NCBI GenBank assembly: GCA_963770895.1
Contig: CAVYRF010000001.1
Coordinates: 1,152,001-1,216,000, forward strand
Direction of reading: 5' to 3'
Origin: an uncultured Acidobacteriota bacterium
GTDB taxonomy: Bacteria; Acidobacteriota; Thermoanaerobaculia; Multivoradales; UBA5704
DNA: 64,000 nt
Part shown: in pieces, positions 14,501-60,477 of the stretch
Layout of the letters: every line of letters begins with the position of its first letter
Position numbering within the stretch: position 1 is the first letter of the stretch
Made by a program: the position numbers and the translations under genes
Notes under the pieces: model-generated
Databases searched by the model: none
Seen by the model: the letters and a program-made list of their open reading frames with translations, nothing else
What the model was told of the DNA's origin: nothing

Positions 14501-17500
14501 GGCGCCTCTACGACGAAACCTACCAAGCCGGCCAGCCCGCCGCGAACGGCGCAGAATCCGCCGGAACACCAGGCACAGCCGCCGGCGAAGCCGGCGAGAG
14601 CGACGCTCCGGCCGATTTCAACCTGCGCGGCTGGAACAGCAGCTACACCGGGCAGGCGATCCCGCCGGAGGAGATGCGCGAATGGGTTGACGGCACGGTC
14701 GAGCGGCTCCTTTCGCTCGCGCCCAGGCGCGTGCTGGAGATCGGCTGCGGCACCGGGCTGCTGCTGTTACGCGTCGCGCCGCATACCGAAAGCTACCTGG
14801 CGACCGACTTCTCGCGCGTCGCGCTCGCCGGCATCCGGCGCCGTCTGGACCAGCCCGGCCGCGACCTGCCCCAGGTGCGCCTGCTGGAGGCCGCCGCCGA
14901 CGACTGGAGCGGCATCCCCGCGGGCGCCTTCGACCTGGTGATCCTCAATTCGGTCGTGCAGTACTTTCCCGGCGTCGACTACCTGCTGCGTGTGCTCGCA
15001 GGCGCCGTGCACGCCCTGGCGCCGGGCGGCGCGATCTTCGTCGGCGACGTGCGCAGCCTGCCGCTGCTGCCGGCGCAGGCTCTTTCCGTCGAGCTGTTTC
15101 AGGCGCCGGACGCCTGCCGCACCGACGACCTGGCGCGGCGGGTGCGGCGGCGGGTGGTGGGCGAAGAGGAGCTTGCCCTCGATCCGCGCTTCTTCGGTGT
15201 GGCGGCGCGCCGCCTGGGCGCGACGCGCGACGCCGCGGTGTTGATCAAGCGAGGCCGCGCCCACAACGAGCTGACGCGCTTCCGCTACGACGCCTTGCTG
15301 CGCTTCGACACCGGCGCCGCGGGCCAGGCCGCGCCGGTCCGCGCGGCGGCATGGCACTCCGTATCCGGCCTGGAGGTGGACGCCGACGGGCTCGATCTGC
15401 CGGCCATCGAAAATCTCCTGCGCGACCTCGCCGCCGGCGGCACCGCTGCCGGCAGCGAGTCCCTGGTCCTGTCGCGCCTGCCCAACGCGCGGCTCGCCGC
15501 CGAGGCCGCGGCGCTCGCACTGCTCGAACGCCACGACCGCGCCGCCGCCACCGCCGGCGAGCTGCGCCAGGCGGCGCACCAGCGCGCGACCGCGGGGGTC
15601 GATCCCGAGGCGCTGTGGCAGCTGGCGCACGCCCACGGCTGGGACGCCGATCTGCTGGTCGAACCCACGGCGCCAGTCCACTTTGCCGCCGTCCTGCGCC
15701 GCCGCGCTCATCCCGCCGGAGCACAGGGCGCCGCGCCCGCATCCGTGCCCGCGTCCGCAGCGTCCGGCGCGCCAGAAGCGCCGCTCGCCGCCGCGGGCCT
15801 GGACACGCTGGCGCTGCAGTCGCTGGCCAACGATCCGCTGCGCGGCCCGCTGGAGCGCCGCCTGGTGCCGGAGCTGCGCCGCGACCTGGCGGCCAGGCTG
15901 CCGGACTACATGGTGCCGGCGGCGTTCGTGCTGCTCGATCGCCTGCCGCTCACCCACAACGGCAAGGTCGACCAGGCGGCCCTGCCAGCGCCGGACGCCC
16001 TGGGCGATGCCAAGCGGGAAGGCACTCCGCCGCACCCCGGCCTTGAGGCCCGCCTGGCCGCGGTATGGGGCGAGCTGCTCGGCATCGCCACCCCCGGCGG
16101 TCAAGCGGGGGAAGCGGGGGAGCCGGGGGCCGCGGCGGCATCGGCCGGCGTGGCCGGCGCGGGCGCCGCGGGCATCGCGCGCGAAGACAACTTCTTCGAG
16201 CTGGGCGGCCACTCGCTGCTGGCAACCCAGCTGGTCTCCCGCCTGCGCACCGTTTTCGGCGTCGACCTGCCGCTGCGGCGGGTGTTCGAAAAGCCGGTCC
16301 TGGCCGACCTGTGCGACGCCCTGGCGCAGGAGCTGGCGGCGCATCCCGAGGCAGCGGCCCTCGTCGCGCTCACCGCGCTGGCCGCGCCCCCGGTCGCCGG
16401 TAACGCCGCCGTCGCCGTCGCCGCCCTCGACCAGCCGGCGGGACCCGTCGAGGCGCCGCTATCGTTTGCCCAGGAGCGCTTCTGGGCCGCCACCCGCGAC
16501 GCGCCCACGGCCTACAACGTGCCGTCGCCGCTGCGCCTGGTCGGCGCCCTGCGCCACCAGGTCGTCGAGCGCTGCTTCGGCGAAGTGCTGCGGCGCCACG
16601 GCACGCTGCGCACCCGCTTCGTCGAGCGCGCGGATGGGGAGCTGCGCCAGGTCGTCGAGCCGCCGCGCCCCTGGCACCTGCCGCAGATCGACCTCAGCCG
16701 CCTGCCCGCCGCCGCCCGCCAGAGCGAAGCGCGGCGGCTGGTCGACGAAGACACCTGCCGGCCCTTCGATCTCGCCGCCGGCAAGGTCTTTCGCGCCGCC
16801 CTGGCCCGGCTCACGCCGGGCGAGCACGTGCTGCTGATCAACGCCCACCACATCGTCGTCGACGGCTGGTCGATGGGCCTGATGGTGGGCGAGCTGACCG
16901 CGCTCTACCACGCCTTTGCCAACGGCCAGGCCTCGCCGCTGCCCGAGCTGACGGCGCGCTACGTCGACCTGGCGCTCGAACAGCGCCAGCGGCTGTCGGG
17001 CGCCGTCCTCGCAGAGCGCCTCGACCTGTGGCAGCGCCGCCTGGCCGGCGCCCCGCCGATGCTCGCCCTGCCCACCGACCGGCCGCGCCCGCTCCATCCC
17101 ACCCATCGCGGCGATCGCATCCGGCGCCTGCTCCCCACCGTCCAGCTGGAGCGCCTGAAGGCGATCAGCAACCGCGCCCGCGCCTCCCTCTACATGACCC
17201 TGCTCGCCGCCCTGGCGCTGGTCCTGGAGCGCGTCACCGGCCAGCACGACATGGTGGTCGGCACACCGCTCGCCGGGCGCCTGCGCGCCGAATCCGAGCC
17301 GCTCATCGGCGTCTTTCTGAACATGCTGCCGTTGCGCGTCGACCTGACCGGCAGCCACAGCTTCGCGGAGCTCCTGCCGCGCGTCCGCAAGACCGTCCTG
17401 GAAGGCTTCGAAAACCAGGAGGTCCCCTTCGAGCCCCTGCTGCGGCGCCTGGGCCTGCGCCGCCAGGCCTCGCACTACCCGCTGTTCCAGATCACCCTCA

Positions 17501-17742
17501 ACATGCTCAACCTCCCCGAGACCGGCGGCCGCCTCCCCGGCCTCGCCGTCGAGCCGCTGCCCCTCCACCAATTCGAATCGAAATACGACTTCACCCTCTA
17601 CGCCATCGAAGTCCCCGACGGCCTCATCCTGGACCTGCTCTACAGCCGCGAGCTCTTCGACCGCCCACGCATGGATGCCCTCCTGGACGACCTGATGGTC
17701 ACCCTGGACCACGCCGTCGCGACGGACCCCGTTCACGCCTGA
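11533..17742 (+). CDS. NRPS C-A(N-MT interrupted, Leu-like code)-T-C (terminal C), about 2069 aa
   Basis: The likely start is the ATG at 11533 (MSPGAPAADRLAGLSREQRALL, a docking helix) overlapping the previous stop. The track's extension to 9739 overlaps the previous gene and is spurious. Motifs: HHIISDGWS, VLEIGCGTG, GGHSLLA, terminal HHIVVDGWS. Confidence 0.93.
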   Translation: MSPGAPAADRLAGLSREQRALLFEQVRKRKEAAAAPSGRIPRRPASMAAVPASFAQERLWFMDRLAPGNPAFNISYALRLRGRSSPAVVTAVLNEVVRRHEALRTTFAERGGQPLQVIAPPAAAGLRLPVIDLAALPAGRRAAAVRGLAERESQWRFRLESGPLLRTLLLRLAPDEHVLMLVMHHIISDGWSMGVLAREITAVWRVIAAAGAAPLPPLPIQYADFALWQRSWLSGAELERQVDYWRQRLAGAADSLDLPADRPRPAAQTYRGAQLRGVLAAGLMARLRQLARQHEASPYMALLAGFQALLGRLSGQGDLSVGSPIANRNRAELEPLIGFFVNTLVMRGDLAGDPPFDDLLARTRKSALEAFAHQDLPFERLVVELRPERRLSVTPLFQVVCALQNAPLGGMDLPGLTVAPVPLEVTTAQFDLELHGWEQDDGSLLAMVYYSTELFDAATARRFVGQLDTLLDAATDDPGLRLTALPLLTAAERHQLLREWSQGGPSPALGAPDLDIATRVLARAAQTPDAVAVAWSGGELRYGELAARATQLAGDLASLGVAADTLVGVCAGRSPELVIGALTVLLAGGAYLPLDPSYPRQRLAAIVRQSGIRILLAAGTAGVAGGPADWAAPEVRVLPIARPAPPAAGDPAARAADPRQLAYVIYTSGSTGQPKGVAISRHGLAAMVAWHLDAYAISGQDRSALLASPAFDASVWEMWPYLAAGASLHIPDDEVRLMPDRLLAWLAAQAITLAHPTTPMAEPLLAQLDATGAPPGLRLRAMLTGGDRLQRRPRQGLGFELFNHYGPTESSVVATAARVEPPPESSGVGVRPPSIGRPIAGSRAYVVDARLAPAAALVPGELLLGGEGLARGYAAAPDQTAQRFVPDPFAAAPGGQRLYRTGDLVRWLPDGTLEFLGRLDSQVKLRGFRIELGEIGSTLQRHPAVAAAAVGLVDTGGGPRLAAWVVPRTQAELAAAGWQPAGDDHVAQWRRLYDETYQAGQPAANGAESAGTPGTAAGEAGESDAPADFNLRGWNSSYTGQAIPPEEMREWVDGTVERLLSLAPRRVLEIGCGTGLLLLRVAPHTESYLATDFSRVALAGIRRRLDQPGRDLPQVRLLEAAADDWSGIPAGAFDLVILNSVVQYFPGVDYLLRVLAGAVHALAPGGAIFVGDVRSLPLLPAQALSVELFQAPDACRTDDLARRVRRRVVGEEELALDPRFFGVAARRLGATRDAAVLIKRGRAHNELTRFRYDALLRFDTGAAGQAAPVRAAAWHSVSGLEVDADGLDLPAIENLLRDLAAGGTAAGSESLVLSRLPNARLAAEAAALALLERHDRAAATAGELRQAAHQRATAGVDPEALWQLAHAHGWDADLLVEPTAPVHFAAVLRRRAHPAGAQGAAPASVPASAASGAPEAPLAAAGLDTLALQSLANDPLRGPLERRLVPELRRDLAARLPDYMVPAAFVLLDRLPLTHNGKVDQAALPAPDALGDAKREGTPPHPGLEARLAAVWGELLGIATPGGQAGEAGEPGAAAASAGVAGAGAAGIAREDNFFELGGHSLLATQLVSRLRTVFGVDLPLRRVFEKPVLADLCDALAQELAAHPEAAALVALTALAAPPVAGNAAVAVAALDQPAGPVEAPLSFAQERFWAATRDAPTAYNVPSPLRLVGALRHQVVERCFGEVLRRHGTLRTRFVERADGELRQVVEPPRPWHLPQIDLSRLPAAARQSEARRLVDEDTCRPFDLAAGKVFRAALARLTPGEHVLLINAHHIVVDGWSMGLMVGELTALYHAFANGQASPLPELTARYVDLALEQRQRLSGAVLAERLDLWQRRLAGAPPMLALPTDRPRPLHPTHRGDRIRRLLPTVQLERLKAISNRARASLYMTLLAALALVLERVTGQHDMVVGTPLAGRLRAESEPLIGVFLNMLPLRVDLTGSHSFAELLPRVRKTVLEGFENQEVPFEPLLRRLGLRRQASHYPLFQITLNMLNLPETGGRLPGLAVEPLPLHQFESKYDFTLYAIEVPDGLILDLLYSRELFDRPRMDALLDDLMVTLDHAVATDPVHA

Positions 17743-17871
17743 ATCGCTGCGCGGTTCGGCAAGTCCCGCCTGCCGCCCCTTCCGGCACTTCCATAGTGCC
17801 GCCCCCACAGCCGCAGAATTCAACCTTCCTTCGTGGGCGGAGGCCGGGAGCCGAATGCAAGGACCGGGAGG

Positions 17872-20800
17872 ATGACGCCGGAGAACCTGGAATCCATCTA
17901 CCGGTTGTCGCCGGTCAACGAGGGCATGCTCTCCTTCGCGCAGGAGCGGCTGTGGTCCCTCGACCAGCTGCAGGGCGGCGCGCTCAACAACGTGCCGCTC
18001 GCGCTGCGGATGAGCGGCGAGCTGCGGGTGGCGCTGCTGGCGCGGGCGCTCGCGGAGGTGCGGCGGCGTCACCAGGTGCTGCGGGCGGTGTTTCGCGGCG
18101 ACGGTGGCGACGGCGGTGGCGGCCAGGTGCGGCAGATGGTGCTGCCGCCGGCCGGCGCGGACCTCGGACTGGTGGACCTTACGGCGCTGCCCATCGCGCG
18201 GCGGCAGCCGGCGGCGGCGGAGGGGATCGCGGCGGAAGCGCGGCGCCCCTTCGACCTGGCGCGAGGGCCGCTGCTGCGGACGCGGCTCTTCCAGCTGGGC
18301 GAGACCGAGCACCTGCTGCTGGTCGAGCTGCATCCCATCGTCGGCGACGGCTGGTCGACGGGGGTGCTGGTACGGGAGGTGGCGGCGCTCTACCGGGCCT
18401 TTTTCCTGGGGGAGGCGTCGCCGCTCGGCGAGCTGCCGGTGCAGTATGCGGACTTCGCGGCCTGGCAGCGGAGCTGGCTCTCCGGCGAGGTCCTGGCGCG
18501 GCAGCTGGCGTTCTGGCGCGAGCACCTGGCCGGGGCCCCGCCGGTGCTCGAGCTGCCGACCGACCGGCCGCGTCCCCAGCTGCAGAACCTGCGCGGCCGG
18601 CGGCTGGCGGTCGATCTCGATCGGTCGCTCGCCGACGCACTGGTCGCGCTCGGGCAGCGGCACCGCGCGACGCTCTTCATGGTGCTCGCCGCGGCGTTCC
18701 AGGCCCTGCTGGCGCGGACCAGCGGCGCGCCCGAGATCTGCCTGGGCACGCCGGTCGCAGGCCGCACGCGGCCTGAGACCGAAGGGCTGATCGGCCCGTT
18801 CGCCAACACCCTGGTGCTGCGCGGCGACCTGTCTCGCGATCCAACGTTTGCCGACCACCTGGCGGCGGTGCGGCGGGACGTGGTGGCGGCCTCCGAGCAC
18901 CAGGAGCTGCCGTTCGCAAAGCTCCTTGCCGCGCTGGTGCCGGAGCACCAGCGCAGCCTGGCGCACACGCCGCTGTTCCAGGTGATGCTGGCGCTGCAGA
19001 ACGCGCCGGTGGGACCGCTGGACCTGCCGGGCGTCCGGCTCGAGCCGCTCGCCTTGGAGAACCCCTGCGCACGCTTCGACCTGACGCTGACGCTGGCCGA
19101 GGCCGCCCGCGGCCTCGCGGGATCCATGGAGTACGGCGTGGCGCTCTTCGACCGCGCGACGATCGCGCGGCTGGCGGCACAGCTCGAGACCTTGCTGCGC
19201 AGCGTCACCTCGACCGTGACGGGCGCGGCGGGCGCGGAGCAACGGATCTCGGCGCTCGCGCTGCTCGGCGCCGCGGAGCGCCAGCAGCTGCTCGTCGAGT
19301 GGCGGGGGCAGGCGGGCCAGGCCCCCGCGGTGACCGTGCCGGAACGGCTGGCGCTCCAGGCGTCGCGGACGCCGACGGCCGTGGCGCTCGAGTGGCGGGA
19401 CCAGCGGTTGACCTATGGTGAGCTGGCGCGGCGCGCCGGCCTGGTGGCACGCCGCCTGCGCGCCGCCGGCGTCGGCGCGGAGACGCGGGTGGGGCTGCTG
19501 GTCGAGCGGTCGCTCGACCTGGTGACAGGCCTCCTGGGGATCTGGCTGGCGGGAGGGGCGGCGGTGCCGCTCGATCCCGGACAGCCGGCTTCGCGCCTGC
19601 AGCAGCTGCTCGACGACGCCCTGCCGGCCGGCGCCGCTGCCCTGGTGTCGCAGCGCAGCCTGGCGGAGCTCCATGCGTCGCTGCGCCTGGGATCGCTGCC
19701 CGTCGTCTGGATGGAAGACGCGGCACAGGCCGCTGCGGAGGCCGGGCCGGCGCTCTCGCCGCCCGCGCCGGGGGACTTGGCCTACCTGGTCTACACCTCG
19801 GGCAGCACCGGCCGGCCGAAAGCGGTCATGGTGGAGCACGGCAGCCTGGCCCACACCATGGCGGCGTACGAGGCGTGCGGCCTGGCGGTCGCCGAGCGCG
19901 TCCCGATCCTGGCGCCGGCGACGTTCGACGCCTTCTTCTGTGAGCTGCTGCCGCTTTTGACCGGCGGCACGGCGGTGCTCTTCGACATCCGGCCGGTCCT
20001 CGACCAGCAGCTCCTGCTCGCCGAGCTGGAGCGGGCGACGGTGCTGTTCGCGACGCCGGCGCTGATGCGGCAGCTGACGGCGGCGCTCCTCGAGCGGGCG
20101 GCGCGGGGCTCCCGCCCGCCGCGGCTGCGCTGGGTGTGGAGCGGCGGCGAAGCGGTGGGGCGCGACCTCGTGGCGGCGATGCGGCGGGCGTTTCCGGGCT
20201 CGCGCATCGGGGTGCTCTACGGCCCCACCGAAACCACTGTCGACGCGCTGTGGGACGAGCCGGACGCGGAGACCCACAACGGGCTCGGCTGGCCGTTGCC
20301 GGGCGTGACGGTGGAGGTGCGGGACGCCGCGTGGTCGCTCGCGCCGGCCGGCTCGCCGGGCGAGCTGTGGCTGGGCGGGCCGGGGCTGGCGCGCGGCTAC
20401 CTGGGCCGCCCGGACCTGACGGCCGAGCGCTTCGTGCCGTCGCCGTCGGGGCGGGGGGCGCGGCTCTACCGCTCGGGGGACCTGGTGCGGTTTCGTCCCA
20501 ACGGCCGCCTGGAGTTCCTGGGGCGGATGGATCAGCAGGTCAAGCTGCGCGGCATCCGCGTCGAGCCCGGCGAGGTGGAGGCGGTGTTGGCGGACTTCCC
20601 GGGGGTCGCCGCGGCGGCGGTGCTGGTGCGGCGGCACGCCGCGGGCGACGAGCGGCTGGTGGCCTGCGTGGCGGCGGCGGCCGGCCTGCAGATCGGCGAG
20701 CTGCGCCGGTTCGCCGAGTCGCGGCTGCCTTCCTACATGGTGCCGAACCAGTTTGTCCTGCTGGAGGGGCTGCCGCTGACGCGGCACGGCAAGGTGGACC

Positions 20801-23800
20801 GGCGCGCCCTGTCCGAGCTGGCGATGGCGGAGGCGCCCGCGGCAGCGGCCGCGCGCGAGCCGCAGGCGGCAGCCCGGGCGGTCGCGATCGTCGGCATGGC
20901 CGGGCGCTTTCCCGGCGCGCCCGATCTCGCGGCCTTCTGGCGCAACCTGCGCGACGGCATCGAGTCGATCTCGTTCTTCACCGACGCCGAGCTCGACCGC
21001 GCCGGGGTCCGCCGCGAGCTGCGCCAGACCCCCGGTTACGTCGCCGCCGCGGGAGTGCTGCCGGAGGCCGACCTGTTCGACGCCGGCTTCTTTGACGTCG
21101 GACCGCGCGAGGCGCAGATCATGGACCCGCAGCAGCGGGTGCTCCTGGAGGTCGCGGCCGAGGCGCTGGAGCGCGCCGGCTACGGCGCCGGCAGCCTGGC
21201 GGCCGGGGCGGCGCGCATCGGCGTCTTCGCCGGCGGCGGCACCAGCACCTACGCCCTCAATCATCTGATCGGCCGCGCCGAGTTCGACGGGCTGGAGCTG
21301 GCGCTCGGCAACGACAGCGACTTCCTGGCCACCCGCCTCTCCTACAAGCTCGACCTCAAAGGTCCGGCGGTGACCGTGCAGACCGCCTGCTCCACGTCGC
21401 TCGTGGCGGTGCACCAGGCGGTGCGCAGCCTGCTCGACGGCGAGTGCGACCTGGCGTTGGCGGGCGGGGTGAACGTCACCTCGACGCAGTTCGACGGGCA
21501 TGTCTACCAGGAGGGAGGCATCGTCTCGCCGGACGGTCACAACCGGGCGTTCGACGCCCGCGCCAAAGGGTCGGTCAGCGGCAACGGCGCCGGCGTGGTG
21601 GTGCTCAAGCCGCTGGCGCGGGCGCTGGCCGACGGCGACCCGATCCACGCCGTGGTCCTGGGCTCGGCGCTCAACAACGACGGCGCCGGCAAGGTCGGCT
21701 TCACGGCGCCTGCGGAGCTGGGGCAGGCGCAGGTCATCGCCGCCGCGCAGGCGGCGGCCGGGGTGTCGCCGGAAAGCATCGGCTACGTCGAGGCGCACGG
21801 CAGCGCGACGCCGGTCGGCGATCCGATCGAGATCGCGGCGTTGACCCGCGCCTTCCGGGCCGGCACCGCGCGGCAGGGGTTCTGCGCCGTCGGCTCGGTC
21901 AAGACCAACATCGGCCACAACGGCTCCGCCGCCGGGATCGCCGGCCTGCTCAAGACCGTGCTCGCCCTGGCGCATGGGCAGATCCCGGCGAGCCTGCACT
22001 ACGAGCGGCCCAACCCGCAGATCGATTTCGCCTCGAGCCCGTTCTACGTGCCACGCGAGCTGGCCGGATGGCCGGCGGGCGGGGCGCCGCGGCGGGCGGG
22101 GGTGAGCTCTTTCGGCCTCGGCGGCACCAACGTCCACGTCGTCCTCGAGGAGGCGCCGGCGCCGCCGCCGGCAGCCGCACCGTCGCGCCCCTGGCAGCCG
22201 CTGGTGCTGTCGGCGCGCACCGCGGCCGCCCTGGAGGCGGCGACCGATCGCCTGGTGGCGCACCTCGAAGCCCATCCGGACGCGGACCTGGCGGACGTGG
22301 CGGCGACCCTGGCGACCGGCCGCAAGGGGCACTCGTGGCGGCGGGCAGTGGTCTGCCGCGACACCCGCGAGGCGCGCCAGCTGCTCGCGGCGCGCGATCC
22401 GCGGCGGCTGCTCTCGGCGACGGTGGACGGCGCCAGCCGGCCGGTGGCGTTCCTCTTCTCGGGGCCGGATGAGCAGTACCCGGCGATGGCGGCCGGGCTC
22501 TATCGCGACGAGCCGGCCTTCCGCGAGCGCCTGGACCGCCATGCCGCAGTGCTCGCGCCGCTGCTCGGCGTCGATCCGCTGGCGGTGCTCTTCGCCCCGG
22601 CGGCGCCCCTCGCGCCCACCGCGGTGTCGCAGCCGCTGCTCTTCGCCGTCGAGCTGGCGCTCGCCGAGCTCTGGCGGCAGTGGGGCGTCGAGCCGCAGGC
22701 GATGCTCGGCCACGGCCTGGGCGAGTACGTGGCCGCCTGCGTCGCCGGCGTGTTCTCCGCCGAGGCGGCGCTGCGGCTGGTGGTGGAGCGGGCGCGGCGG
22801 ATCGACGCCCTTTCGCCGGGGGCGATGCTCGCCGTGCCGCTGGGCCGCGAGGAGCTGCAACCGCTGCTGCCGGACCAGGCGTGGATGGCGGCGGTCGACG
22901 GACCGCGTACGTCCGTCGTCTCGGGCACGCCGGCGGCGATCGCGCAGCTGGCGCGGCGGCTCGACGAGCAGGGGATCGCCAGCCGGCTGCTCGCCACGAC
23001 GCACGCCTTGCACTGCCCGCTGCTCGCGCCGGCGGCCGCGGCGCTCGCGGAGCTGCTGCGCCAGGTGCCGCTGGCGGCGCCTCGCATCCCCTGCCTGTCG
23101 AGCCTCACCGGGACCTGGATCACCGCGTCGCAGGCCACCGATCCGGGCTACTGGGCCGAGCAGCTGTGCCGGCCGGTGCAGTTCGCGGCCGGGGTCGCCG
23201 AGCTGTGGCGGGAGCCCGGGCGGGTGTTGGTCGAGATCGGGCCGGGGGCCAACCTGGCGTCGCTCGCCCTGCAGCAGCCGGCCGGCGGCGCGGCCGACCC
23301 GGTGGCGGTTTCGTCGCTGCCGGAGGCGTACGAACGGCAGCCGGACCGCGCCCACCTGCTGGGCGCCGCGGCCAGGCTCTGGCTCTCCGGGGTGCGGCTC
23401 GACTGGCGGGCGGTCTGGGGCGGGGAGCGGCGGCGCCGTCTGGCCCTGCCCACCTACCCCTTCGAGCGGCAGCGCTACTGGATCGAGCGCCTCGGGCCGG
23501 CGGCCCGGACGCGGCTGGACGCGCTCCCCGAGACAGCGCCGGAGAGCGGCCCGCGGCTCTACCTGCCGGCGTGGCGGCTGACGCCGTCTCTGCCGGCGCC
23601 GGACGCCGCCCGGCTGCGGGGGCAGGGGGCGCCCTGGCTGGTGCTCTCCGACGACGCCGGCCTCGGCCGCTGCATCACGGCGCGGCTGCGGCAGGCCGGG
23701 GCGCGGGTGGTGGAGGTGGCGGCCGGCGACGGCTTCGCCGCCCTCGGTGCGGATGCCTTCCGCGTCGACCCGCGGGAGCCGGGCGATTACGGCCTGCTGG

Positions 23801-26800
23801 TCGCGGCTCTCGCCCGCGAGGGGGAGGAGCGGCCGCTGCCGCGGCGGATCGTCCACCTGTGGGGCGTGCAGAAAAAAGGCCCGTGGCAACGCCGGTGCGC
23901 GAGCTGTCTGCTGGGGCTGGTGCAGGCGCTCGACCGCGCTGCCCGGACGCCCGGCACGGCAGCCGCCCTGCCGGCCCTCAGGGTGCTGGTGGCCGCCGAT
24001 GGCCTCCACCCGTTCGCGGCTGCCGGCCGGCGCCGTGCCGAGCTGGCGCCGCTCGCCGCGCTCTGCCGGGCGCTGCCGCGCGAGCTGCCGGGGATCGCCT
24101 GCCGCGCGGTGGACGTCGAGCTGCCGCGAGGGGCGGTGCGGCGAGAGCGGCTGGCCGCGGCCCTGCTGGCGGAGATCGCCGCGATTCCCGACACCACCGA
24201 AACCGCCGGGATCGGCGACGTCGGCGATATCGGCGGCAGCGGCGAGCACCGCCAGGGTCGCGGGACGCCCTGGCCGGGCGGCATCGCGCTGCGCGCCGGC
24301 GAGCGCTGGGCCGAGGCGTTCGAGCTGGTGCCGGCCGACCCGGCGGCGCCGTCGCGGCCGTTGGCGGAAGATGCGACGGTGCTCCTCCTGGGTCGGCGCG
24401 CCGGCTTGCTCGCGGCGGCGGCCGTGGCGCTCGGCCGGATGGGCGTGCGCACGGTCTGGGACCAGGGGGAATCCGGGCCGACGGCAGCTGGCGCTGCCGG
24501 TGCCACCGGTGCAGCGGGTGAGGCGCCGGCGCCGCTGGCCGGGGTGATCGTGGGCGAGGAGGCGCTCCTGGGAGAGCTGCCGGAGCTCCCCCTGGCGCAG
24601 GGGATGTCGGCCGACCTGGGCGCCTGGGACGCGGCGCTGGCGGGCGTGGCGGATCGCTTCGCGGCGCTGGTGCGGCGTCTCACCGTGCAGGAGGCGGGGT
24701 TCTGCCTCGTCGCCTCGTCCTTCGCGCCGCTCGCTCCGCGGCCGGGGGAGGCGCTGCGCGCCGCGGCAGGCAGCCTGGCCGATGCCCTGGCCGAGGAGGC
24801 CGGCTGGTCGGCGCCGGCTGTCGCATGGGGCCGGGTGGTCTGGGACGCGCGGCTGGAGGAGCCGAACGGAGCGGCGCCGCCCGCGGTCGGCGAGGCCGTG
24901 CCGGCCCAGATCCTGGCGAGCGTGCTCGCCCAGCTGGCGGCGGGGGAGGGCACCGAGCAGCTGGTGGTGTCGCGGGGCGAGCCGTCGCCGCCGCGGGCCA
25001 CGGCCTTCCCCGGCACGCTCCACGGCCGGCCCAACCTCAAGAACCCCTACGTCGCGCCGCGGAGCGAGAGCGAACGGCGGCTGGCCGCGATCTGGCAGGA
25101 CCTCCTGGGCATCGATCCGATCGGCATCCACGACAGCTTCTTCGAGCTGGGCGGCGACTCGCTCCTGGCCGTGCAGGTGATCGCCCGCGTGCGCGACGCC
25201 TGGGGCGTGGAGATCGCCCCGCGCGAGCTCTTCGAGGCGCGGACGCCCGCGGCGCTCGCCGCCGCGATCGCCGCCTTGCGCGCGGCCGATGGGATCCCGG
25301 CCGCAACGCCGGCGATCGTGCCGGCGGCGCGGCCGCAGGGACGCGAAAGCCGCGGCCCGCTGTCGTTCGCGCAGCAGCGGCTGTGGTTCATCGACCAGCT
25401 GGAAGGCGGCGCTCTCTACAACGTGCCGATGGCGCTGCGGGTGGACGGCGCGCTGTCGGTCGCCGTGCTGTCGCGGACGCTGCAGGAGGTGGTGCGCCGC
25501 CACGAGGTGCTGCGGACGGTGTTTCCCGCCGTGGACGGCCGGTCACAGCAGGTGATCCTGCCACCGGCCGGGCTGGCGCTGCCCCTGGTGGAGCTGACCG
25601 GCCTGCCCGCGGCGCTGCGCCAGCCGGTGGCGGCGCGCCTGGTGGCGGCGGAGGCGCGCCGGCCGTTCGACCTGGCGCGCGGGACGCGAGCTGCGGCGAG
25701 TGCCGGCCGGCCAACGCGGTCGGCCGGCCTCTTCCGCGCCGGACTCTGGCGGCTGGGCCAGACGGAGCACCTGCTTCTCCTCAACCTCCATCACATCGTG
25801 AGCGACGGCTGGTCGCTCGGCGTCCTGCTGCGGGAGATCGCGACGCTCTATGGGGCGTTTGCCGCAGGCGGTCCCTCGCCGCTGCCCGAGCTGCCGGTGC
25901 AGTACGCGGATTTCGCGATCTGGCAGCGCTCCTGGCTGCAGGGCGAGGTGCTGGACGAGCATCTCGACTACTGGCGGCGGCAGCTGGCCGGGGTGCCGCC
26001 CGTGCTGGCGCTGCCGCTCGACCGGCCGCGCCCGCCGGTGCAGACGTTCCCCGGCGCGACCCGGCCGCTGCAGCTCGAGCGCGGGCTGTCGGACGCGGTG
26101 GGCGAGCTGTGCCGCAGCCGCGGGGTGACGCCGTTCATGGTCCTGCTGGCCGCCTGGACGGCGCTCCTGGGACGCCATGCGGGACAGGACGACGTGCCGG
26201 TCGGCACGCCGGTCGCCGGCCGCGGCCGCCGCGAGACCGAAGGACTGATCGGCTTCTTCGTCAACACCCTGGTGCTGCGCGGGGACCTTGCGGGCAACCC
26301 GAGCTTCGCCGAGCTGCTCGACCGGGTGCGCCGCACGTCGCTCGACGCCTTCGCCCACCAGGACCTGCCGTTCGAGCGCATCGTCGAGGCGATCGCGGTC
26401 GAGCGCAACCGCGCGGTCTCGCCGCTCTTCCAGGTCTTCTTCGCGTTCCAGAACATCCGGCTGGGGACCCTCGACCTGTCCGGGCTGCGCCTGGCCCCGC
26501 TCGACGTCCATACCGGCCTGGCGAACTTCGATCTCACCCTGACGCTGCAGCAGGGTCCGGCCGGCTTCGCCGGGACGCTCGAGCACAATACCGACCTGTT
26601 CGACGGCAGCACGGCGGAGCGGCTGGCGGCCCACTTCGCCACCCTGCTGCGCGCCGCGATGGACGATCCCGGATTGCCGGTCCAGGACCTGCCGCTGCTG
26701 CCTGCCTGGGAACGGCAGCAGTCGCTCGTCGAATGGTGCGACACCGACCGCGCCTTGGCCCCGGTGTGCCTGCACCAGCTGGTCGAGGCGCAGCTCGACC

Positions 26801-29800
26801 GCGCTCCGGACGCCGTCGCCCTGATCGCCGGCGACCGCCACCTGAGCTGCGCCGAGCTCGAGGCGCGGGCCAACCGGGTGGCCCGCCACCTGCGATCGCT
26901 CGCGGTCGGTCCGGACCAGCTGGTCGGCCTGTGCACCGACCGCTCGCCGGAGATGGTGATCGGCATGCTGGGCATCCTCAAGGCCGGCGGCGCCTATCTG
27001 CCGCTCGATCCGGCCTATCCCCGCGAGCGTCTGGCGTTCCTGATGGAGGACTCGGGGGTGCGGGTGCTGCTGACCGAAGGCGACCTTGCCGAGCGTGTTC
27101 CGGCAGGCGCCGCGCGCGTCGTGCGGCTCGACGGCCCAGCGTTCCTCGGCGCGGCGAGCGGCGAGCGGCGCCGCGAGGGCGGCGCGACGCCGGCGAGCCT
27201 GGCGTACGTCATCTACACCTCCGGTTCGACCGGCAAGCCGAAGGGCGCGGGGATCTCCCACGCCGCGGTGGTCAACCTGCTTGCCTCGATGCAGGCGCGG
27301 CCGGGCATGGGGACCGCGGACGCGCTGCTGGCGGTCACCACGCTGAGCTTCGACATCGCGGCGCTGGAGATCTACCTGCCGCTGGTGTGCGGGGCGCGGC
27401 TGCTGCTCGCGTCGCGCCAGATGGCGCAGGACGGCGAGCTGCTGCGGCAGGCGCTCGCGGCCGGCGAGGTGACGGTGATGCAGGCCACCCCCGCCACCTG
27501 GCGGCTGCTGCTCGCGGCCGGCTGGACGGGGGCGCGCGGGCTGACGGTGCTCTGCGGCGGGGAGGCGCTGGCGCGCGACCTCGCCGACCAGCTGCTCGGC
27601 GCGTGCGACAGCTTGTGGAACGTCTACGGGCCGACCGAGACGACGATCTGGTCCAGCCTGGACGAGGTGGCGCCGGGCGGCGAGGGCGGCGACCGTGTCG
27701 TGGGCGGCGGGGGTGTCCCGAGCGTCGGCGGCGGCGCGGTGGCGATCGGCCGGCCGCTGGACAACACCGGGATCTACCTGGTTTCGCCGCGGCTCGAGGC
27801 GGTGCCGGCCGGGGTGGCGGGCGAGCTGCTGATCGGCGGCGCGGGCCTGGCACGCGGCTACCACGGCCGCCCCGATCTCACCGCCGAGAAGTTCGTCCCG
27901 CACCCTTTGGCGGCGGCGCGGCCGGCGGCGGGCGCGCGCCTCTACCGCACCGGCGACCTGGCCCGCCACCTGGCCGGCGGCCGCATCGAGTACCTGGGCC
28001 GCATCGACCACCAGGTGAAGGTGCGCGGTTTCCGCATCGAGCCGGGCGAGATCGAGGCCGCGCTGGGCCGCCACCCGGAGCTGCGGCAGGCGGTGGTGGC
28101 GGTGCGCGAGGACCGCCCCGGAGACCAGCGGCTGGTGGCCTGGGTGGTGCCGTCGGGGGAGCGGGCGCCGGCAGCCGCCGAGCTGCGCTCGTACCTGGCC
28201 GAGCGCCTGCCGGAGCCGCTGGTGCCGGCGGCCTTCGTGGCGCTCGCCAGCCTGCCGTTGCTGCCCAACGGCAAGGTGGACCGGCGTGCGCTGCCGGCGC
28301 CGGAGTGGACGCCGGCCGCCGCCGCCGCGTCGCTGCCGCGCACTCCCGCCGAAGAGCTTCTGGCGGGGATCTTCGCCGAGGTGCTGGGGCTGCCGGGCGT
28401 GGGGGCGGAGGACGACTTCTTCACCCTCGGCGGCCACTCGCTGCTCGCCACCCAGCTGGTGGCGCGCATCTTCCAGGTCTTCGGCGTCGAGCTGCCGCTG
28501 CGGGCGGTGTTCGAAAGCCGCACCCTGGCGCAGATGGCGGCGCGGATCGCGGCGTTGCGCGGCGCCGCCGCCGCCGGCGCCGGCATGGCGCCGCCGCTCG
28601 TGCCGCGCGCCGCCGGGGCCGATGCGCGCGGCCTGCCGCTGTCGTTTGCCCAGGAGCGGCTGTGGTTCCTCGACCAGCTGGTGCCCGACAATCCGTTCTA
28701 CAACATCTACAACGCCCTGCGCATCGAGGGACCGCTCGACGAGGCGACCCTGGAGCGCGCGGTGCGCGAGGTGATGCACCGCCACGAGGGGCTGCGCACC
28801 GTCTTCGCGGAGCGCGACGGGATCCCGGTCCAGGTGGTGCAGAGCGCGCCGGCGCGCGGCCTGGCGACGATCGACCTCACCGCCCTGGGCGCCGCGCCGC
28901 GCCGCGCCGAAGCGGACCGGCTGGCGGGCGCCGAGGGGCGGCGGCCGCACAATCTGACCCGCGGGCCGCTGCTGCGCGCCCACCTGGTGCGCTTGAGCGC
29001 CGGCGACCGGCTGTTGATGCTCAACGTCCACCACATTGCCGCCGACGGCTGGTCCATGGATCTGCTCAGCCGCGAGCTCGCCGCCCTCTACGGCGCCTTC
29101 GCGCGCGGCGAGCCGTCGCCGCTGCCGCCGCTGGCGGTGCAGTACCCCGACTTCGCGCTCTGGCAGCGCGAGTGGCTGGCCGCGGGACCGCTCGCGGCGC
29201 AGCTCGACTACTGGCGCCGGCAGCTCGCCGGCCTCGACGAGGCGCTCGACCTGCCTGCCGACCGGCCGCGGTCGGCCGTCGAGTCGTTCCGCGGCGGGCA
29301 TCTCGACTTCGCCCTGGCGCCGCGGCTGGCCGCCGACCTCACCGCGCTCGCCCGCCGCCACGGCGCGACCCCGGCCATGGCTCTGCTCGCCGCCTTCCAG
29401 GCGCTGCTGGGGCGCGACACCGGCCGCCGCGACGTGCCGGTCGGCGTCGCCATCGCCAACCGCACCCGCCGCGAGGTCGAAGACCTGATCGGCTTCTTCG
29501 TCAACACCCTGGTGCTGCGCCTCGACCTCGGTGGGCGCCCTGGTCTGGGCGCCCTGCTGGGCCGCGTCCGCGACGTGGCGCTGGCCGCCTACGACCACCA
29601 GGACCTGCCTTTCGAGCGCCTGGTCGAGGACCTCAACCCGGGCCGCAGCCTGGCGCGCAATCCGCTGGTGCAGGTGCTGTTCGGCTTCCAGAACTTCCCG
29701 CGCACCGCGGTCGCAGTCGGCGGGTTGACCTTTGCCCCGCTCGCCGAAAACGCCGCCGATCCGGGCACCTCCAAGTTCGACCTCACGCTCTTCGTCTTCG

Positions 29801-32800
29801 AGCACGGCGCGTCGCTCAGCGCCAACCTCGAGTACAACAGCGACCTCTTCGACGCCGCCACCGTCCGGCGCCTGACGGAGCGCTTCCAGGCACTCCTCAC
29901 GGCCGCGGTGGGCGATCCGCAAGCGCCGGTCGCCGCGCTGCCGCTGCTCGGCGCCGCCGAGCGGCACCAGCTGCTCCACGAATGGAATCCCGGCGCCACC
30001 AGCTACCCGGCCGAGCCCGGCCTGGCGGCCCTCTTCGCGCGCCAGGCGGCGCGCCGGCCGGCGGCCCCGGCCGTGCGTTACGGCGACACGCTGCTGACCT
30101 ACGGCGAGCTGCGGCGCCGCGCCGGCCGCCTGGCCCGCCGCCTGCGCGCGCAGGGCGTCGGCGTGGACACCCGAGTCGGATTGGCCGTCGAGCGCTCGCC
30201 GCATCTGGTGGCGGCAATGCTCGGCATCGTCGAGGCGGGCGGCGCCTACGTGCCGCTCGATCCCGACTATCCGCGGGCGCGGCTCGACTACATCCTGCGC
30301 GACTGCGGCCTGCAGGTGCTGGTGGCGACGCGGACGGCGCTCGCGGCGCTGCCGGCGCCGCCGGCAGACATGGGAGTCGCGCACGTCGTCCTGGTCGGGG
30401 AGCCGGGCGACGACGCCGCGGAGGGCGGGTCGCCGGTCGCGCCGAGCGCCCTCGCCTCGCCGGGCGCCGGCGCGGCCAGCCTGGCCTACGTGATCTACAC
30501 CTCGGGCTCCACCGGCGAGCCCAAGGGGGTGGAGGTGCCGCAGGGCGCGGTGGCGCGGCTGGTGCTCGCGACCGACTACCTGCAGCTCGGGCCGGACGAC
30601 CGGGTCGGCCAGGCCGCCAACGCCAACTTCGACGCCATCACCTTCGAGGTCTGGGGTCCGCTGCTCAACGGCGGCTGCATCGTCGGCATCGACAAGGACG
30701 TGGCGCTGGCGCCGGCGGCCCTGGCGCGCCTGCTGCGCGACCAGCAGGTGACGGCGATGTTCCTGACCTCCTCGCTGTTCAACCAGGTGGTGCGCGAGGA
30801 GCCGGGCGCCTTCGCCGGCCTCGACACGCTGCTGGTCGGCGGCGAGGCGGTCGATCCGGGCTGGGTCCGCAAGCTGCTCGCCGGGGCGCCGCCGCGCCGG
30901 CTGCTCAACGGTTACGGGCCGACCGAGAGCACCACGTTCGCCTCGTGGCACCGCGTCGCCGCGCCGCCCGCCGACGGCGCCACGGTGCCGATCGGGCTGC
31001 CGCTCGCCAACACCAGCCTGCACGTGCTCGACGGCGAGCTGCAGCCGGTGCCGATCGGCGTCGCGGGGCAGCTGGCCATCGGCGGCGACGGCCTGGCCCG
31101 CGGCTACTGCCGCCGGCCGGCCGCCACGGCGGAGCGCTTCGTGCCCGATCCCTTCGCCGGGCCGGCCGGCGCCCGCCTCTACCTCACCGGCGATCGCGTG
31201 CGCCGGCGCGCCGACGGCGCCATCGAGTTCCTCGGCCGCCTCGATCGCCAGGTCAAGATCCGCGGCTTCCGCATCGAGCCCGGCGAGATCGAGGCCCGCC
31301 TGCGCGAGCACCCGGCGGTCGGCGACTGCGTGGTCGCGGCGCTGCCGGCGGCCGGGGGCGACGGCAGCGGCAAGGCCGCCGCCGCCGCCCCCGCCGAACG
31401 CCGCCTGGTCGCCTACGTGGTGCAGGACCCCGACTGGCAAGGTGGCGAGGAAGCCGGCACCCAGCACGACCAGGTGACCCAGTGGGGCGTCGTCTTCGAC
31501 GACATCTACCACCGCGACGCCGCCGATCCCGACCCGACCTTCAACTTCGTCGGCTGGGACAGCACCTACACCGGCGAGCCGCTGCCGCGGGCGCAGATGG
31601 TGGAGTGGCTCGACGACACGCTGGCGCGGATCTCCGCCCTCGCGCCGCGACGGGTGCTCGAGATCGGCTGCGGCACCGGCATGCTGCTGTTCCGGCTGGC
31701 CCCGCGGTGCGAGCTGTATTGGGGGGCCGACGTTTCGGCCCGCGCCCTCGCCTATGTCCAAAGCCGGCTGGGCGACCTGGCCGGCGATCCCGGCCGGGTG
31801 CGCCTGCTGGCCCGCCCGGCCGACTGCTTCGACGGCATCGCCCCCGGCTCGTTCGACACCGTCATTCTCAACTCGGTGGTCCAGTACTTCCCCAGCGCCG
31901 AGTACCTGGCCGGCGTGCTGGCGGCGGCCGCCGCGGCGGTGCGTCCGGGCGGCGCCATCTTCCTTGGCGACGTGCGCAGCCTGTCGCTGCTGCCGGCCTT
32001 CCACCTCGCCGTCGAGCTGGCCCGCGCCGACCCGGCGCTGCCGCTCGCCGCTCTGCGCTCCCAGGTGCTGGCACGCCGGCAGCTCGAAAACGAGCTGGCG
32101 CTGTCGCCCGCCTTCTTCGCCGACCTGCAGCGGCGGGTGCCGGCGATCCGCCGGGTGGAGATCCATCCCAAGCGCGGGCATGCCCACAACGAGCTGACCG
32201 CCTTCCGCTACCAGGTCGTGCTGCGCATCGGCGCCAGCCACGGCGCCACCGATGCCACCCACGCCGCCGCCGCCATCGGCGCAGCCGCTGCGCCCGCCTG
32301 GCGGGACTGGCGGGCGGGCGGCCTGACCCTCGAGCGCTTGCAGAGCGAGCTCCAGAGCGACGGAGCGGGCCTGATCGCGCTCTCCGGCATCCCCAACCTG
32401 CGGCTCGCGACCGACGTGGCGGCCGCCCGCCTGGCGTGGGAGGACGTGCCCCCCGAGGCGGCCAATGGGCACGGCACCCTGCACGCCGGTGGAGCGAAGG
32501 CTGCGGCCGCCGGCGCCACCGCCGGCGATCTGCGCCGCCGGGCGGCAGCTGCCGCCGCGGCGTCCGGCGCCGTCGATCCGCAGGCGCTATGGGACCTTGC
32601 GGCCCAGCTGTCCTACGACATCGAGATCGGCTGGGCGGCGCCGGGTGCCGACGGCGCCTTCACCGCACTGCTGCGTCGCCGCCCCGCCGCCCCCGCTGCG
32701 CACGACGCGGCGGTTCCGCCCCTGGCCGAGCTGCTCCCCCAGCCGGCGCCCGGCGCGACCGCCGCCGAGCTCGCCAACCGACCGCTCCGCGGGCGCTTCG

Positions 32801-36157: not shown

Positions 36158-36158
36158 G

Positions 36159-38324: not shown

Positions 38325-38367
38325 TTCCGCCGGTTACCTCAAGTACCTGACAACTCAGCAGTCACCG

Positions 38368-60477
<22,110 letters not shown>

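Follow-up and report, generated by a model that had tools for sequence, protein, structure and literature searches.

Gene 3 of the window (the whole stretch of 64,000 nt that was analysed, from an uncultured soil bacterium) is a lineage-specific, shortened copy of a lipopeptide-type hybrid NRPS-PKS gene. As judged by alignment, its damaged C-A-KS-AT-KR-like-T block derives from a normal hybrid module of the order C-A-PCP-KS-AT-KR°-T-C, and comparison with intact relatives shows three in-frame deletions together with a set of point substitutions. The deletions removed modules 1–4, the PCP between A and KS (~104 aa) and a conserved loop of the AT domain. All three kept the frame, which runs for 16.8 kb without stop codon or frameshift. 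The seven features listed in the initial annotation were all confirmed where it had placed them (Table 1). Tentatively, and at somewhat less than an even chance, we favour reading the gene 3 remnant as a reduced loading or starting module whose A domain charges the sole remaining carrier, T2.

Table 1. Features of gene 3 and its upstream neighbour (window positions)
Feature	Position	Strand	Remarks
Gene 2 terminal C and stop codon	16456..17742	+	HHIVVDG 16846-16866
Intergenic stretch, gene 2/gene 3	17743..17871	+	GGGAGG close 5' of ATG 17872
Gene 3	17872 (ATG)..34635	+	module C°-A-KS-AT°-KR°-T2, then C-A-T-C-A(MT)-T-C
First 19 codons of gene 3, MTPENLESIYRLSPVNEGM	17872..17928	+	homologous to start of paralogous 10812-aa gene
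C° of gene 3	17929..19272	+	HPIVGDG 18331-18351; His168 to Pro
A domain, complete	19348..20811	+	Pfam AMP-binding aa 509-857, AMP-binding_C aa 914-987
Ala/Pro-rich linker, 23 residues	20812..20880	+	scar of ~104-aa in-frame deletion of PCP
KS	20875..22152	+	Cys-His-His intact
AT°, full-length but dead	22450..23337	+	Pfam E 5e-44
psiKR and degenerate KR (KR°)	23383..25032	+	GRRAG for NADPH-binding glycine motif; no Tyr
Carrier T2, PCP-like	25063..25287	+	GGDSL; sole carrier of module
Intact rest of gene 3: C-A-T-C-A(MT)-T and terminal C (HHVAADW)	25357..34635	+	

One intact copy of the module lies within the same genome, as a paralogue (G000:C2:4337467-4345278); others were found in the same-genus genome G005 and in four more genomes (G299, G234, G021 and G011). 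The paralogue is 64% identical to the window copy in C, 69% in A, 82% in KS, 73% in AT, 51% in the KR-like region and 69% in T, and between its A and KS it is longer by ~104 residues. The G299 module is 69–70% identical along its full length and has a PCP. The G005 orthologue is split over contigs C440, C700 and possibly C832, and the sole sign of its PCP is a stretch of 28 residues ahead of the KS, similar to a linker that follows a PCP. On C440 the order is still T-C(HH)-A, which makes the module an internal one in G005. The window copy is sister to C700 (support 1.0; branch lengths 0.180 versus 0.159), and its A domain is sister to C440 (support 0.998). The window and this canonical C-A-PCP-KS-AT-KR-ACP module share the domain order, homology over the full length, the same KS, the GYS-type AT family, a non-catalytic KR and a PCP-like final carrier followed by C. 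In contrast, the window copy lacks the PCP, has Pro for the C-domain His and Gly for the AT Ser, shows five more AT motif changes and the loop deletion, and stands N-terminal after the loss of modules 1–4. The lesions of the C His, the PCP and the AT each occur in the window copy alone and in none of the 6–8 relatives covering the site, which goes beyond chance.

The 5' end of gene 3 matches the start of the paralogous gene (tblastn, G000:C2:4324285-4324371), with 79% nucleotide identity over 72 nt. The match ends at a breakpoint between GM and L, and after codon 19 gene 3 jumps to the fifth C domain of the paralogue. Therefore, modules 1–4 were deleted in frame, which leaves the dead C as an N-terminal domain without donor. 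Homology to the paralogue in the intergenic stretch ends ~12 nt upstream of the ATG, and a promoter and terminator scan of that stretch found nothing. Core motifs are kept in all the gene 3 modules downstream of the damaged one, and the last C shares 73% identity with the terminal C of the paralogue. Gene 3 has no thioesterase, and release is assumed to proceed via the terminal C.

The replacement of the catalytic His by Pro in the opening C domain was read as described before. The codon at position 18334 is CCC, and CAC in the paralogue (CAC>CCC). Among 25 C domains (16 in the window and 9 in the paralogue) the second His is missing only in C°, and HHxxxDG is kept in 6/6 relatives covering the site. 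The A domain is complete and its PCP is absent, as the initial annotation had held: core motifs A1–A10 are all readable, GKVDRRAL lies at 20788-20811, the KS starts from 20881 and the gap is 23 residues. A PDB search gave the second A domain of linear gramicidin synthase A as the closest solved relative (E 3e-159, 534 bits; runner-up 357 bits), and the A domain is probably glycine-type. At the linker position all six relatives aligned have FFDLGGHSLL (PCP in 6/6), which the window copy lacks, and Pfam finds a single PP-binding stretch within the first 3000 aa of gene 3 (aa 2416-2479). An 18-nt tandem duplication behind 20825 was seen in one public run.

The KS keeps its catalytic triad (TACSTS 21382-21399, EAHGSAT 21790-21810, NIGHNG 21907-21924) and is 89% identical to the same-genus orthologue. 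The AT° changes are L1545P, G1546D, Y1627H, S1628G, N1689D, F1726L and loss of the DLRRMLGR loop, and the nucleophilic Ser became Gly by AGC>GGC at 22714. The deviant motifs noted before were all found (GPDEQ 22462-22476, GHGLG 22708-22722, AAVDGP 22888-22905, HALH 23002-23013). GYSLG, AAVNGP and HAFH are kept in 7/7 relatives and G[LIV]GEQ in 8/8, and the DLR[RQ]MLGR loop is present in 7/7. Downstream, 550 aa between AT and carrier are KR-like: PF21394 matches 5/5 family members, and Pfam KR weakly matches 3/5 (best E 4e-4; window E 0.23). Profile comparison with genuine psiKR-KR gave 99.7% probability, with LGRRAGLL aligned to TGGTGGIG, and the PDB profile match was 6ulw, an A-KR-T protein (E 2.6e-5). 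The loss of the Rossmann motif and of the Tyr stands, with Arg at the Tyr position when the weakly matching Pfam KR stretch is read by eye. However, it is not a separate inactivation in gene 3: the dead KR is common to the whole family, so it is ancestral. The carrier Ser of T2 is intact (GGDSL at 25150-25164), as reported, and an intact C (HHIVSDG) comes after T2.

Relative rates of the window copy and its sister were counted at sites where the outgroups agree. A replacement excess was observed only in C° (45 versus 23, p=0.010) and AT° (18 versus 6, p=0.023) of the module. The A domain (17 versus 15), the KS (8 versus 12), the two KR-like halves (5 versus 8 and 9 versus 8), T2 (5 versus 3) and the next C (7 versus 7) are not accelerated. 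At sites invariant in six outgroups, 2/224 are changed in the KS and 9/133 in the AT. Five of these nine AT° changes sit in four catalytic motifs (P=0.008), and this clustering suggests that the AT° fold may have been kept while catalysis was lost. The dN/dS value is 0.41 for AT (0.16–0.24 in intact pairs) and 0.23 for KS (0.25–0.34). Branch codon counts for AT, with N/S of 23.5/17.5 in the window and 13/13 in the sister, do not set the two apart (Fisher p=0.62), and therefore the relaxation signal rests on small-count amino-acid tests. The initial annotation had argued from the long open frame against simple decay. The confinement of the excess to C and AT lends that view some support, but the open-frame argument is weak, because 76% GC leaves spurious long frames open over the same DNA (overlapping frames of 3014 and 3391 codons) and because three intact downstream modules need an open frame anyway.

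As a reduced starting module, gene 3 would work by its A domain charging T2 past the KS-AT°-KR° body. From T2 the aminoacyl group would be taken by the downstream C into the three intact modules, and C°, AT° and KR° would stay as scaffold. We can only infer that the A domain reaches and charges T2, ~1400 residues downstream. If the KS is idle, its constraint would have to reflect a structural role; KS condensation in this module would need an AT in trans. On three public contigs (L017, L118 and L185) an A gene adjoins a one-carrier PKS gene, which is a precedent for a carrier-less A beside a one-carrier PKS module.

It is rather unlikely, although the main competitor, that gene 3 is a recently dead relic, whose first module became nonfunctional after loss of the PCP or of the upstream modules. 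C and AT would then by chance be the first to show damage, gene 3 would be useless or serve through its last modules only, and the frame would be held by selection on these modules or by too little time. Three independent kinds of damage in one module, with every relative intact, are the usual picture of a module without function, and close relatives with intact C, PCP and AT are one half of what the initial annotation had named as the sign of recent pseudogenisation, the other being that this strain makes no product. The AT excess would take about one sixth of the branch under neutrality, as estimated from codon counts, and inactivation may thus be recent; at codon level the test is non-significant, and open frames are cheap at such GC content. 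Against decay, KS and A show no excess, the three deletions are all in frame, the gene has neither stop codon nor frameshift over 16.8 kb, and the next C and T evolve as in the orthologue.

Double use of T2 is improbable. The aminoacyl group would pass from T2 back to the KS, a trans AT would reload T2 with malonyl and the KS would condense, making the ancestral amino acid-malonate unit without PCP or own AT. This accounts for the intact Cys-His-His and full constraint of the KS. The PKS module immediately preceding the window contains an AT with intact GYSVG, and the paralogue has another AT. For the thalassospiramide line, the available part of the report (10.1101/560987) describes a trans-AT that made up for a cis-AT that had been inactivated, and operons of a stand-alone A and KS-AT-KR-T have one carrier. 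However, the window showed no discrete AT gene, it is speculative that another synthase would lend its cis-AT, and in the natural one-carrier operons the AT is still active (GHSMG).

The initial annotation had offered condensation by the terminal C of gene 2 onto gene 3 as one reading. Gene 2 (11533-17742) does end in an intact C, as it stated (aa 1642-2065, 16456-17727, phmmer domain map), but such condensation is unlikely, and this C is probably the end of an upstream synthetase rather than a partner of gene 3. A single line of genes 0–4, in which this C joins the upstream chain to A-loaded T2, has a low probability. In its favour, the acceptor-less intact C of gene 2 stands 129 nt before gene 3, which opens with a dead C and an orphan A, and genes 0–4 are all on the same strand. 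The reading loses ground to the 5' end of gene 3, which comes from a separate paralogue-like gene start with its own ribosome-binding site. In addition, gene-terminal C domains are common in the source genome (12/223 C-domain matches), the paralogous cluster itself ends in a terminal C with no thioesterase gene nearby, the gene 2 terminal C has no close relative (at most 48% identical, the value for the best in its own genome) and no counterpart in G005 (best 48%), and gene 4 begins with its own ACP-C-A-T initiation block.

Loading of gene 4 in trans by the carrier-less A of gene 3 is very unlikely. Two modules of gene 4, C-(87-aa A fragment)-T and C-T, lack a working A, and inter-module loading is documented for the thalassospiramides in the available part of the same report (10.1101/560987). 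In contrast, genomes of other genera carry the same arrangement of A fragment and T, at an identity of ~50%, and therefore the gene 4 modules have another supplier and predate the PCP loss; gene 4 also looks like a separate line.

The A-KS junction, for which the initial annotation had proposed a read-level check, is spanned by a public short-read contig of 622 nt (run X1, depth 3.4) that covers 20811-21414, from the A end across the linker to the KS, and shows 2 mismatches but no PCP. Exact public contigs were also sought over the two sites of point lesions, 18334 and 22711-22716, and none was among those listed. The stretch was not found in any RNA run. An assembly artefact with a collapsed PCP segment is hardly credible: repetitive megasynthase genes misassemble easily and the single bridging contig is maybe from the same sample as the genome assembly, but this contig was built independently, the deletion is in frame and collapse cannot explain the point lesions.

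In the myxochromide S synthetase, reportedly described by Wenzel et al. in 2006, a carrier point mutation is said to cause the skipping of an internal module. This would be, as in the window, a natural one-module lesion with the frame kept and the line otherwise working; it differs in that a carrier is mutated in an internal module, whereas in the window a carrier is deleted in an N-terminal one. KS domains without service from their own AT occur in trans-AT PKS modules and as KS0 domains. Unlike trans-AT modules, the window has a full-length AT rather than a docking remnant, and unlike KS0 its KS keeps both His residues.

The thalassospiramide Ttc/Ttm lines are hybrid NRPS-PKS lines like the window, and the available part of the report describes A-less modules, A domains that load the carriers of other modules, replacement of the inactivated cis-AT by a trans-AT and programmed module skipping (10.1101/560987). 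These features are experimental and belong to a producing pathway, whereas the window is known from sequence and what it lacks is a carrier rather than an A. An A domain also primes a PKS module in BurA-type starter modules A-T-KS, with a T domain after A (available part of PMC7496086), and in a dinoflagellate transcript that the accessible portion of PMC5725682 lists as A-KS-AT-DH-ER-PP-(TE), an uncharacterised annotation.

The contigs L017, L118 and L185 resemble the window in having a carrier-less A directly upstream of KS and one carrier after KR, with 39–44% identity across A to KR. They differ in that they are two genes split by a stop codon, with no dead C in front, and that AT (GHSMG) and KR (GGTGGIG, Tyr) are intact. 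By its title, one of the three comes from a beta-proteobacterial MAG.

The first module of gene 3 is C°-A-KS-AT°-KR°-T2, in which ° marks a domain read as dead and T2 is the sole remaining carrier. Compared with the hybrid order C-A-PCP-KS-AT-KR-ACP, it fails at C, PCP, AT and KR and agrees at A, KS and the final carrier. All seven motif items of the initial annotation were found at their positions by motif reading and Pfam. The terminal C of gene 2 is intact. The first C of gene 3 lost the catalytic second His, which is missing only there among 25 aligned C domains (16 from the window and 9 from the paralogue, an intact C-A-PCP-KS-AT-KR°-T-C module type in the same genome). The A domain is complete (AMP-binding, 8e-78, and AMP-binding_C in Pfam), and its core motifs including the Lys of A10 were read. 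The carrier between A and KS is absent, with 23 residues from A10 to the KS start, and the only PP-binding match of Pfam within residues 1–3000 of gene 3 is at aa 2416–2479 (1.9e-18). The KS keeps its Cys and both His; a non-elongating KS0 was rejected because neither catalytic His is lost. The AT deviates in four motifs, and the nucleophile of GxSxG is absent. This AT is near full length (Acyl_transf_1 profile positions 2–293 of 319, E 5e-44) and follows the KS, so the trans-AT PKS module type, with no AT or a short docking remnant, was rejected. No discrete AT gene was found among the scanned window ORFs; cis-ATs are present upstream in gene 0 and in the paralogue. The KR lacks the NADPH-binding glycine motif, since LGRRAGLL aligns to TGGTGGIG of a genuine KR in profile comparison, and in our own reading of the weak Pfam KR stretch the catalytic Tyr position is Arg. 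The carrier serine of T2 is intact. The point lesions in C and AT are simple substitutions.

Coordinates of synthetase genes, motifs and lesions in the window
Feature	Position	Strand	Content
Gene 0	ends 1435		C-terminal KR-ACP (Pfam/phmmer)
Stand-alone C domain gene	1473-3008
Gene 1	3008-11533		C-A-T-C-A(MT)-T
Gene 2	11533-17742		C-A(MT)-T-C
Terminal C motif, gene 2	16846-16866		HHIVVDG
Gene 3	17833/17872-34635		C-A-KS-AT-X-T-C-A-T-C-A(MT)-T-C
First C motif, gene 3	18331-18351		HPIVGDG
Point lesion, C	18334		CAC>CCC
A10	20788-20811		GKVDRRAL
KS start	20881
KS active site	21382-21399, 21790-21810, 21907-21924		Cys, His, His
AT motif	22462-22476		GPDEQ
AT motif	22708-22722		GHGLG
Point lesion, AT	22711		TAC>CAC
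Point lesion, AT (nucleophile Ser)	22714		AGC>GGC
AT motif	22888-22905		AAVDGP
Point lesion, AT	22897		AAC>GAC
AT motif	23002-23013		HALH
Point lesion, AT	23008		TTC>TTG
T2 motif	25150-25164		GGDSL
Gap between genes 3 and 4 (3.7 kb)	34636-38367		lower GC, 63-69%
HTH regulator in the gap	35816-36400	minus	PF25212/MarR-like
Amidohydrolase in the gap	36816-38147	minus
Gene 4	38368-60477		ACP-C-A-T-C-A-T-C-(87-aa A fragment)-T-C-T-C-A-T-C-A-T-C-A-T-TE
ACP-type carrier, gene 4 N-terminus	38521-38718 (aa 52-117)		LGLDSL

When 41 related genomes were searched with the A-KS junction, only the window covered the A end to the KS start unbroken among the listed matches. The same search exposed the paralogue (G000:C2:4337467-4345278, in a 10812-codon frame of the host genome G000), which shares 64% identity with the module in C, 69% in A, 82% in KS, 73% in AT, 51% in the KR-like region and 69% in T, and whose A and KS are set apart by about 104 additional residues, a PCP (FFDLGGHSLL). 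The KR-like region, which is specific to the family, served as query for further copies in 300 genomes of the order. The entire module, with PCP, was found at 69–70% identity in G299 (contig C278), and distant copies of about 56% in G234, G021 and G011. In the same-genus genome G005, contigs C700, C696 and C990 carry parts of the module, C832 carries the A end, PCP and KS, and C440 carries T, C and the N-terminal part of A. Every relative that covers the respective site keeps HHxxxDG (6/6), the PCP between A and KS (FFDLGGHSLL, 6/6), G[LIV]GEQ (8/8), GYSLGEY, AAVNGP and THAFH (each 7/7), and an AT loop with DLR[RQ]MLGR (7/7) that is deleted in the window copy. The gene 3 module derives from a known kind of module and is specific to this lineage, truncated and partly inactivated.

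The KR-like region was compared in the same family. It matches genuine psiKR-KR with 99.7% probability in profile comparison; PF21394 matches five of five family members, and Pfam KR matches three of five weakly (E 0.23 for the window). GRRAG replaces the glycine motif in all close relatives, so the dead KR is ancestral and not a lesion particular to the window copy. The several separate inactivations proposed initially are therefore real for C and AT, whose lesions occur only in the window copy, but not for KR. An AlphaFold model of the KR-like region from a 5-sequence alignment was unusable (mean pLDDT 36.5). In another PKS module of the host genome (C1:1528742-1530540), the KR in front of a PCP-like carrier is degenerate in a similar way (AGAAHGPG, Tyr absent), and non-catalytic KR scaffolds seem to be common in this lineage.

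The N-terminus of gene 3 records another deletion. Its first 34 residues match the first residues encoded by the paralogous gene (MRPENLESVYRLSPVQAGIL, G000:C2:4324312), and the DNA shows 79% identity over 72 nt, which begin about 12 nt 5' of the ATG and end at the G-M/I-L codons. Beyond these codons the paralogue runs on into its first C, whereas the window runs into LSFAQERLW of the fifth C. This indicates that gene 3 came from a gene of the paralogue type by in-frame deletion of modules 1–4, which joined equivalent positions of two C domains. In G005 (C440), the homologous C (HHIIGDG) still has a carrier domain in front of it in the same frame. Thus the dead C of gene 3 is chimeric, N-terminal and without a donor upstream in its own protein. 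A promoter and terminator scan of 17500–18000 found nothing. [quoted passage not shown] In the second C of gene 3 (aa ~2620–2635, window ~25690–25740), an insertion of about 14 residues (..AAASAGRPTRSAG..) resembles one in the fifth C of the paralogue (..DEASAGRPRRPAG..) and is lacking in the C of the window that is homologous to that fifth C; the shared insertion may stem from an exchange between C domains.

Public sequencing runs cover the stretch only thinly (best share of sampled words 0.43). A 622-nt contig from run X1 (depth 3.4, on 20811–21414) starts at the end of A10, crosses the full linker and reaches the KS; it shows 2 mismatches and lacks a PCP. Since X1 is possibly the source sample, this contig supports the assembly but is not independent biology. 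Near-exact pieces (0–1 mismatches) in runs X2 and X3 flank the junction, none of them bridging it; runs X2–X4 gave short or divergent pieces only, and missing cover elsewhere is no evidence. Among the contigs listed, none matched exactly over the point lesions. No RNA run with the stretch was listed among the public runs. In the X1 contig an 18-nt unit (AEAPAA, 20826–20843) is also duplicated in tandem behind 20825 without a change of frame; the scar of the deletion shows either a length polymorphism or slippage here.

Constraint was examined against the G005 orthologue. A KS-through-T tree pairs the window copy with G005:C700 as its sister (support 1.0, nearly equal branches of 0.180 versus 0.159), and the A-domain tree pairs it with G005:C440 (support 0.998). 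Changes unique to the window or the sister copy were counted only at sites where the outgroups agree.

Changes unique to the window or the sister copy
Region	Window	Sister	p
C	45	23	0.010
A (N-terminal part)	17	15	0.86
KS	8	12	0.50
KS-AT linker	0	4	0.13
AT	18	6	0.023
KR-like, first half	5	8	0.58
KR-like, second half	9	8	1
T	5	3	0.73
Next C	7	7	1

The excess replacements were limited to C and AT, and relaxed constraint over the whole length, as in a pseudogene, was not found. Six outgroups share an invariant residue at 224 KS sites and 133 AT sites; the window copy departs from it at 2 and 9 of these, respectively. Of the 9 AT changes, 5 fall in four catalytic motifs that make up 23 of the 133 sites (P=0.008). 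Pairwise NG86 dN/dS between the window and C700 was 0.41 for AT, versus 0.16–0.24 in three intact pairs, and 0.23 for KS, versus 0.25–0.34 in intact pairs. A branch-specific parsimony N/S count for AT gave 23.5/17.5 in the window versus 13/13 in the sister (Fisher p=0.62), and the codon-level branch test was significant for no domain. Because the codon level gives no separation, the signal of relaxation in AT is modest and rests on the amino-acid tests. Gene conversion as the cause of KS conservation was rejected, since the KS is 89% identical to the G005 orthologue versus 83% to the paralogue in its own genome.

The initial annotation had taken the open frame as an argument against simple decay. 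No stop codon or frameshift is present in the 5600 codons of gene 3, and its three deletions relative to the relatives are all in frame. However, wrong frames over the synthetase genes are also open (3014 codons at 16459–25503 on the minus strand, 3391 codons at 24825–35000 on the plus strand). Since long wrong frames stay open at the same GC, selection cannot be read from ORF length alone, and the in-frame state of all three deletions is more telling. That the module is not simply decaying has some support from A, KS, T and the next C, which show no excess replacements, although the codon-level test was not significant.

This pattern of retained constraint makes a reduced function plausible. 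In the reading that we tentatively favour, A would charge T2, the downstream C would take over, and C°, AT° and KR° would stay as scaffold. The parts that would be dispensable in such a one-carrier starting module are those lost, namely the donorless C, the first carrier, the AT and the already dead KR; constraint remains on A, KS, the carrier and the next C downstream. The best PDB match of the A domain, at E 3e-159 and 534 bits (next 357 bits), is the second A of linear gramicidin synthase A, which activates glycine. The AT signal could reflect a preserved fold that is freed from catalytic constraint, or a recent inactivation. The main rival, somewhat less likely, is a recently dead module whose frame is preserved for the modules downstream. 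Distinctly less probable is that the A-KS fusion is a minimal hybrid starter, in which one carrier does two jobs and the amino acid-malonate unit is still made. A would load T2, T2 would return the aminoacyl group to the KS, and a trans-acting AT would recharge T2 with malonyl, which would dispense with the PCP and a working cis-AT. This variant would account for the full constraint on the KS, and intact GYS-type ATs exist in gene 0 and the paralogue. Thalassospiramide lines, a precedent, have A supply between modules, a trans-AT that complements a dead AT, and module skipping (10.1101/560987). A supply of this kind would fit here by anatomy alone, with a carrierless A in gene 3 and A-less carriers in gene 4.

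Condensation by the terminal C of gene 2 onto the gene 3 module, the first reading proposed initially, is probably not what happens, given the gene 3 module's own gene start and the ordinary nature of terminal C domains here. This intact C has no close relative (at most 48% identity in its own genome and in G005). A C at the end of a gene is ordinary in the host genome, where a stop follows within 60 residues in 12 of 223 C-domain matches. The paralogous cluster consists of an acyl ligase, an aminotransferase, a transketolase-like gene, an ABC transporter, an ACP-C-A-T protein and the 10812-aa protein with a terminal C, after which no thioesterase and no more NRPS genes follow. The 10812-aa protein and gene 3 end in C domains that share 73% identity. 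Gene 4 starts with its own ACP-C-A-T block, which is 41% identical to the ACP-C-A-T initiation protein of the paralogous cluster. These five points make it most likely that the window holds three adjacent synthetase systems (genes 0–2, gene 3 and gene 4) rather than one line. A third terminal C of the HHVAxDW type (G000:C2:2208053-2209342) is 74% identical to that of gene 3, and this organism may usually release its products by terminal C domains (about 12 of 223 matches).

Domain mapping relied on Pfam and on phmmer searches in which domains of the window itself were the queries. The host genome has 8.16 Mb in three contigs, and the window has 71–79% GC except for a lower-GC stretch at 34–38 kb; the gap between genes 3 and 4 looks like a separator of two synthetase systems. 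The upstream part of gene 0 (at least 22 kb) reads C-A-C-A-T-C-A-T-C-A-T-C-A-T-KS-AT-psiKR. A second C-beside-C junction lies between the stand-alone C and the first C of gene 1 (3158–4516), which are 50% identical and both carry HHLVTDW instead of HHxxxDG. The start of gene 4 resembles a lipo-initiation block, and no acyl ligase was seen in the window. Residues 2522–3724 of gene 4 (window 45931–49539) form two modules without a working A, C-(87-aa A fragment)-T and C-T. The A fragment joined to its carrier without the usual ~86 intervening residues has matches at 43–54% identity in seven genomes (G015, G022, G003, G012, G007, G021 and G001), so this arrangement may be a conserved type and not decay.

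The observation in the initial annotation is thus confirmed and its interpretation partly supported. The module offers a dated natural experiment in megasynthase remodelling, since intact and remodelled forms can be compared within one genome and with a sister genome. Two pairs of deletion endpoints were tolerated: one deletion joined the C1-motif regions of two C domains, the other joined the A-PCP linker to the PCP-KS linker. After this remodelling C and AT lost constraint, and A, KS and T did not. If A loads the distal carrier, a direct A-KS fusion would be feasible and a hybrid starter module could work on a single carrier, which would be useful for engineering. For genome mining, caution is needed: rule-based tools would predict an amino acid-malonate unit, or one line across genes 0–4, and the sequence supports neither.

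The search for A-KS fusions without a PCP, suggested in the initial annotation, gave no second example among the relatives examined. No in-frame carrierless fusion was found elsewhere in a non-exhaustive search of the 41 related genomes, public contigs and a protein library, and no published description of such an arrangement was found in the literature searched. In public genome contigs (80 kept of 388 relatives), three candidates were rejected on reading: L017 is two separate genes, L069 is A-PCP-C, and L081 has A and KS in different frames, with the intervening open frame taken for a frameshifted PCP. Two single-stretch candidates from a library of 1.84 billion proteins (P0005 and P0049, among the best 150 of 45,749 matches) both have a PCP, and among metagenome contigs (80 kept of 187 relatives) L118 and L185 were rejected as two-gene forms. 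L017, L118 and L185 are nevertheless precedents, in which a stand-alone A gene and a stop codon precede a KS-AT-KR-T gene with a single carrier, whereas gene 3 is one frame; their AT and KR are active, in contrast to the dead AT and KR of gene 3. This two-gene unit (L017, L118:4273-10863 and L185) recurs as a carrierless A, a stop and KS-AT-psiKR-KR-T, and in L017 an acyl-CoA dehydrogenase-like frame lies in front of it.
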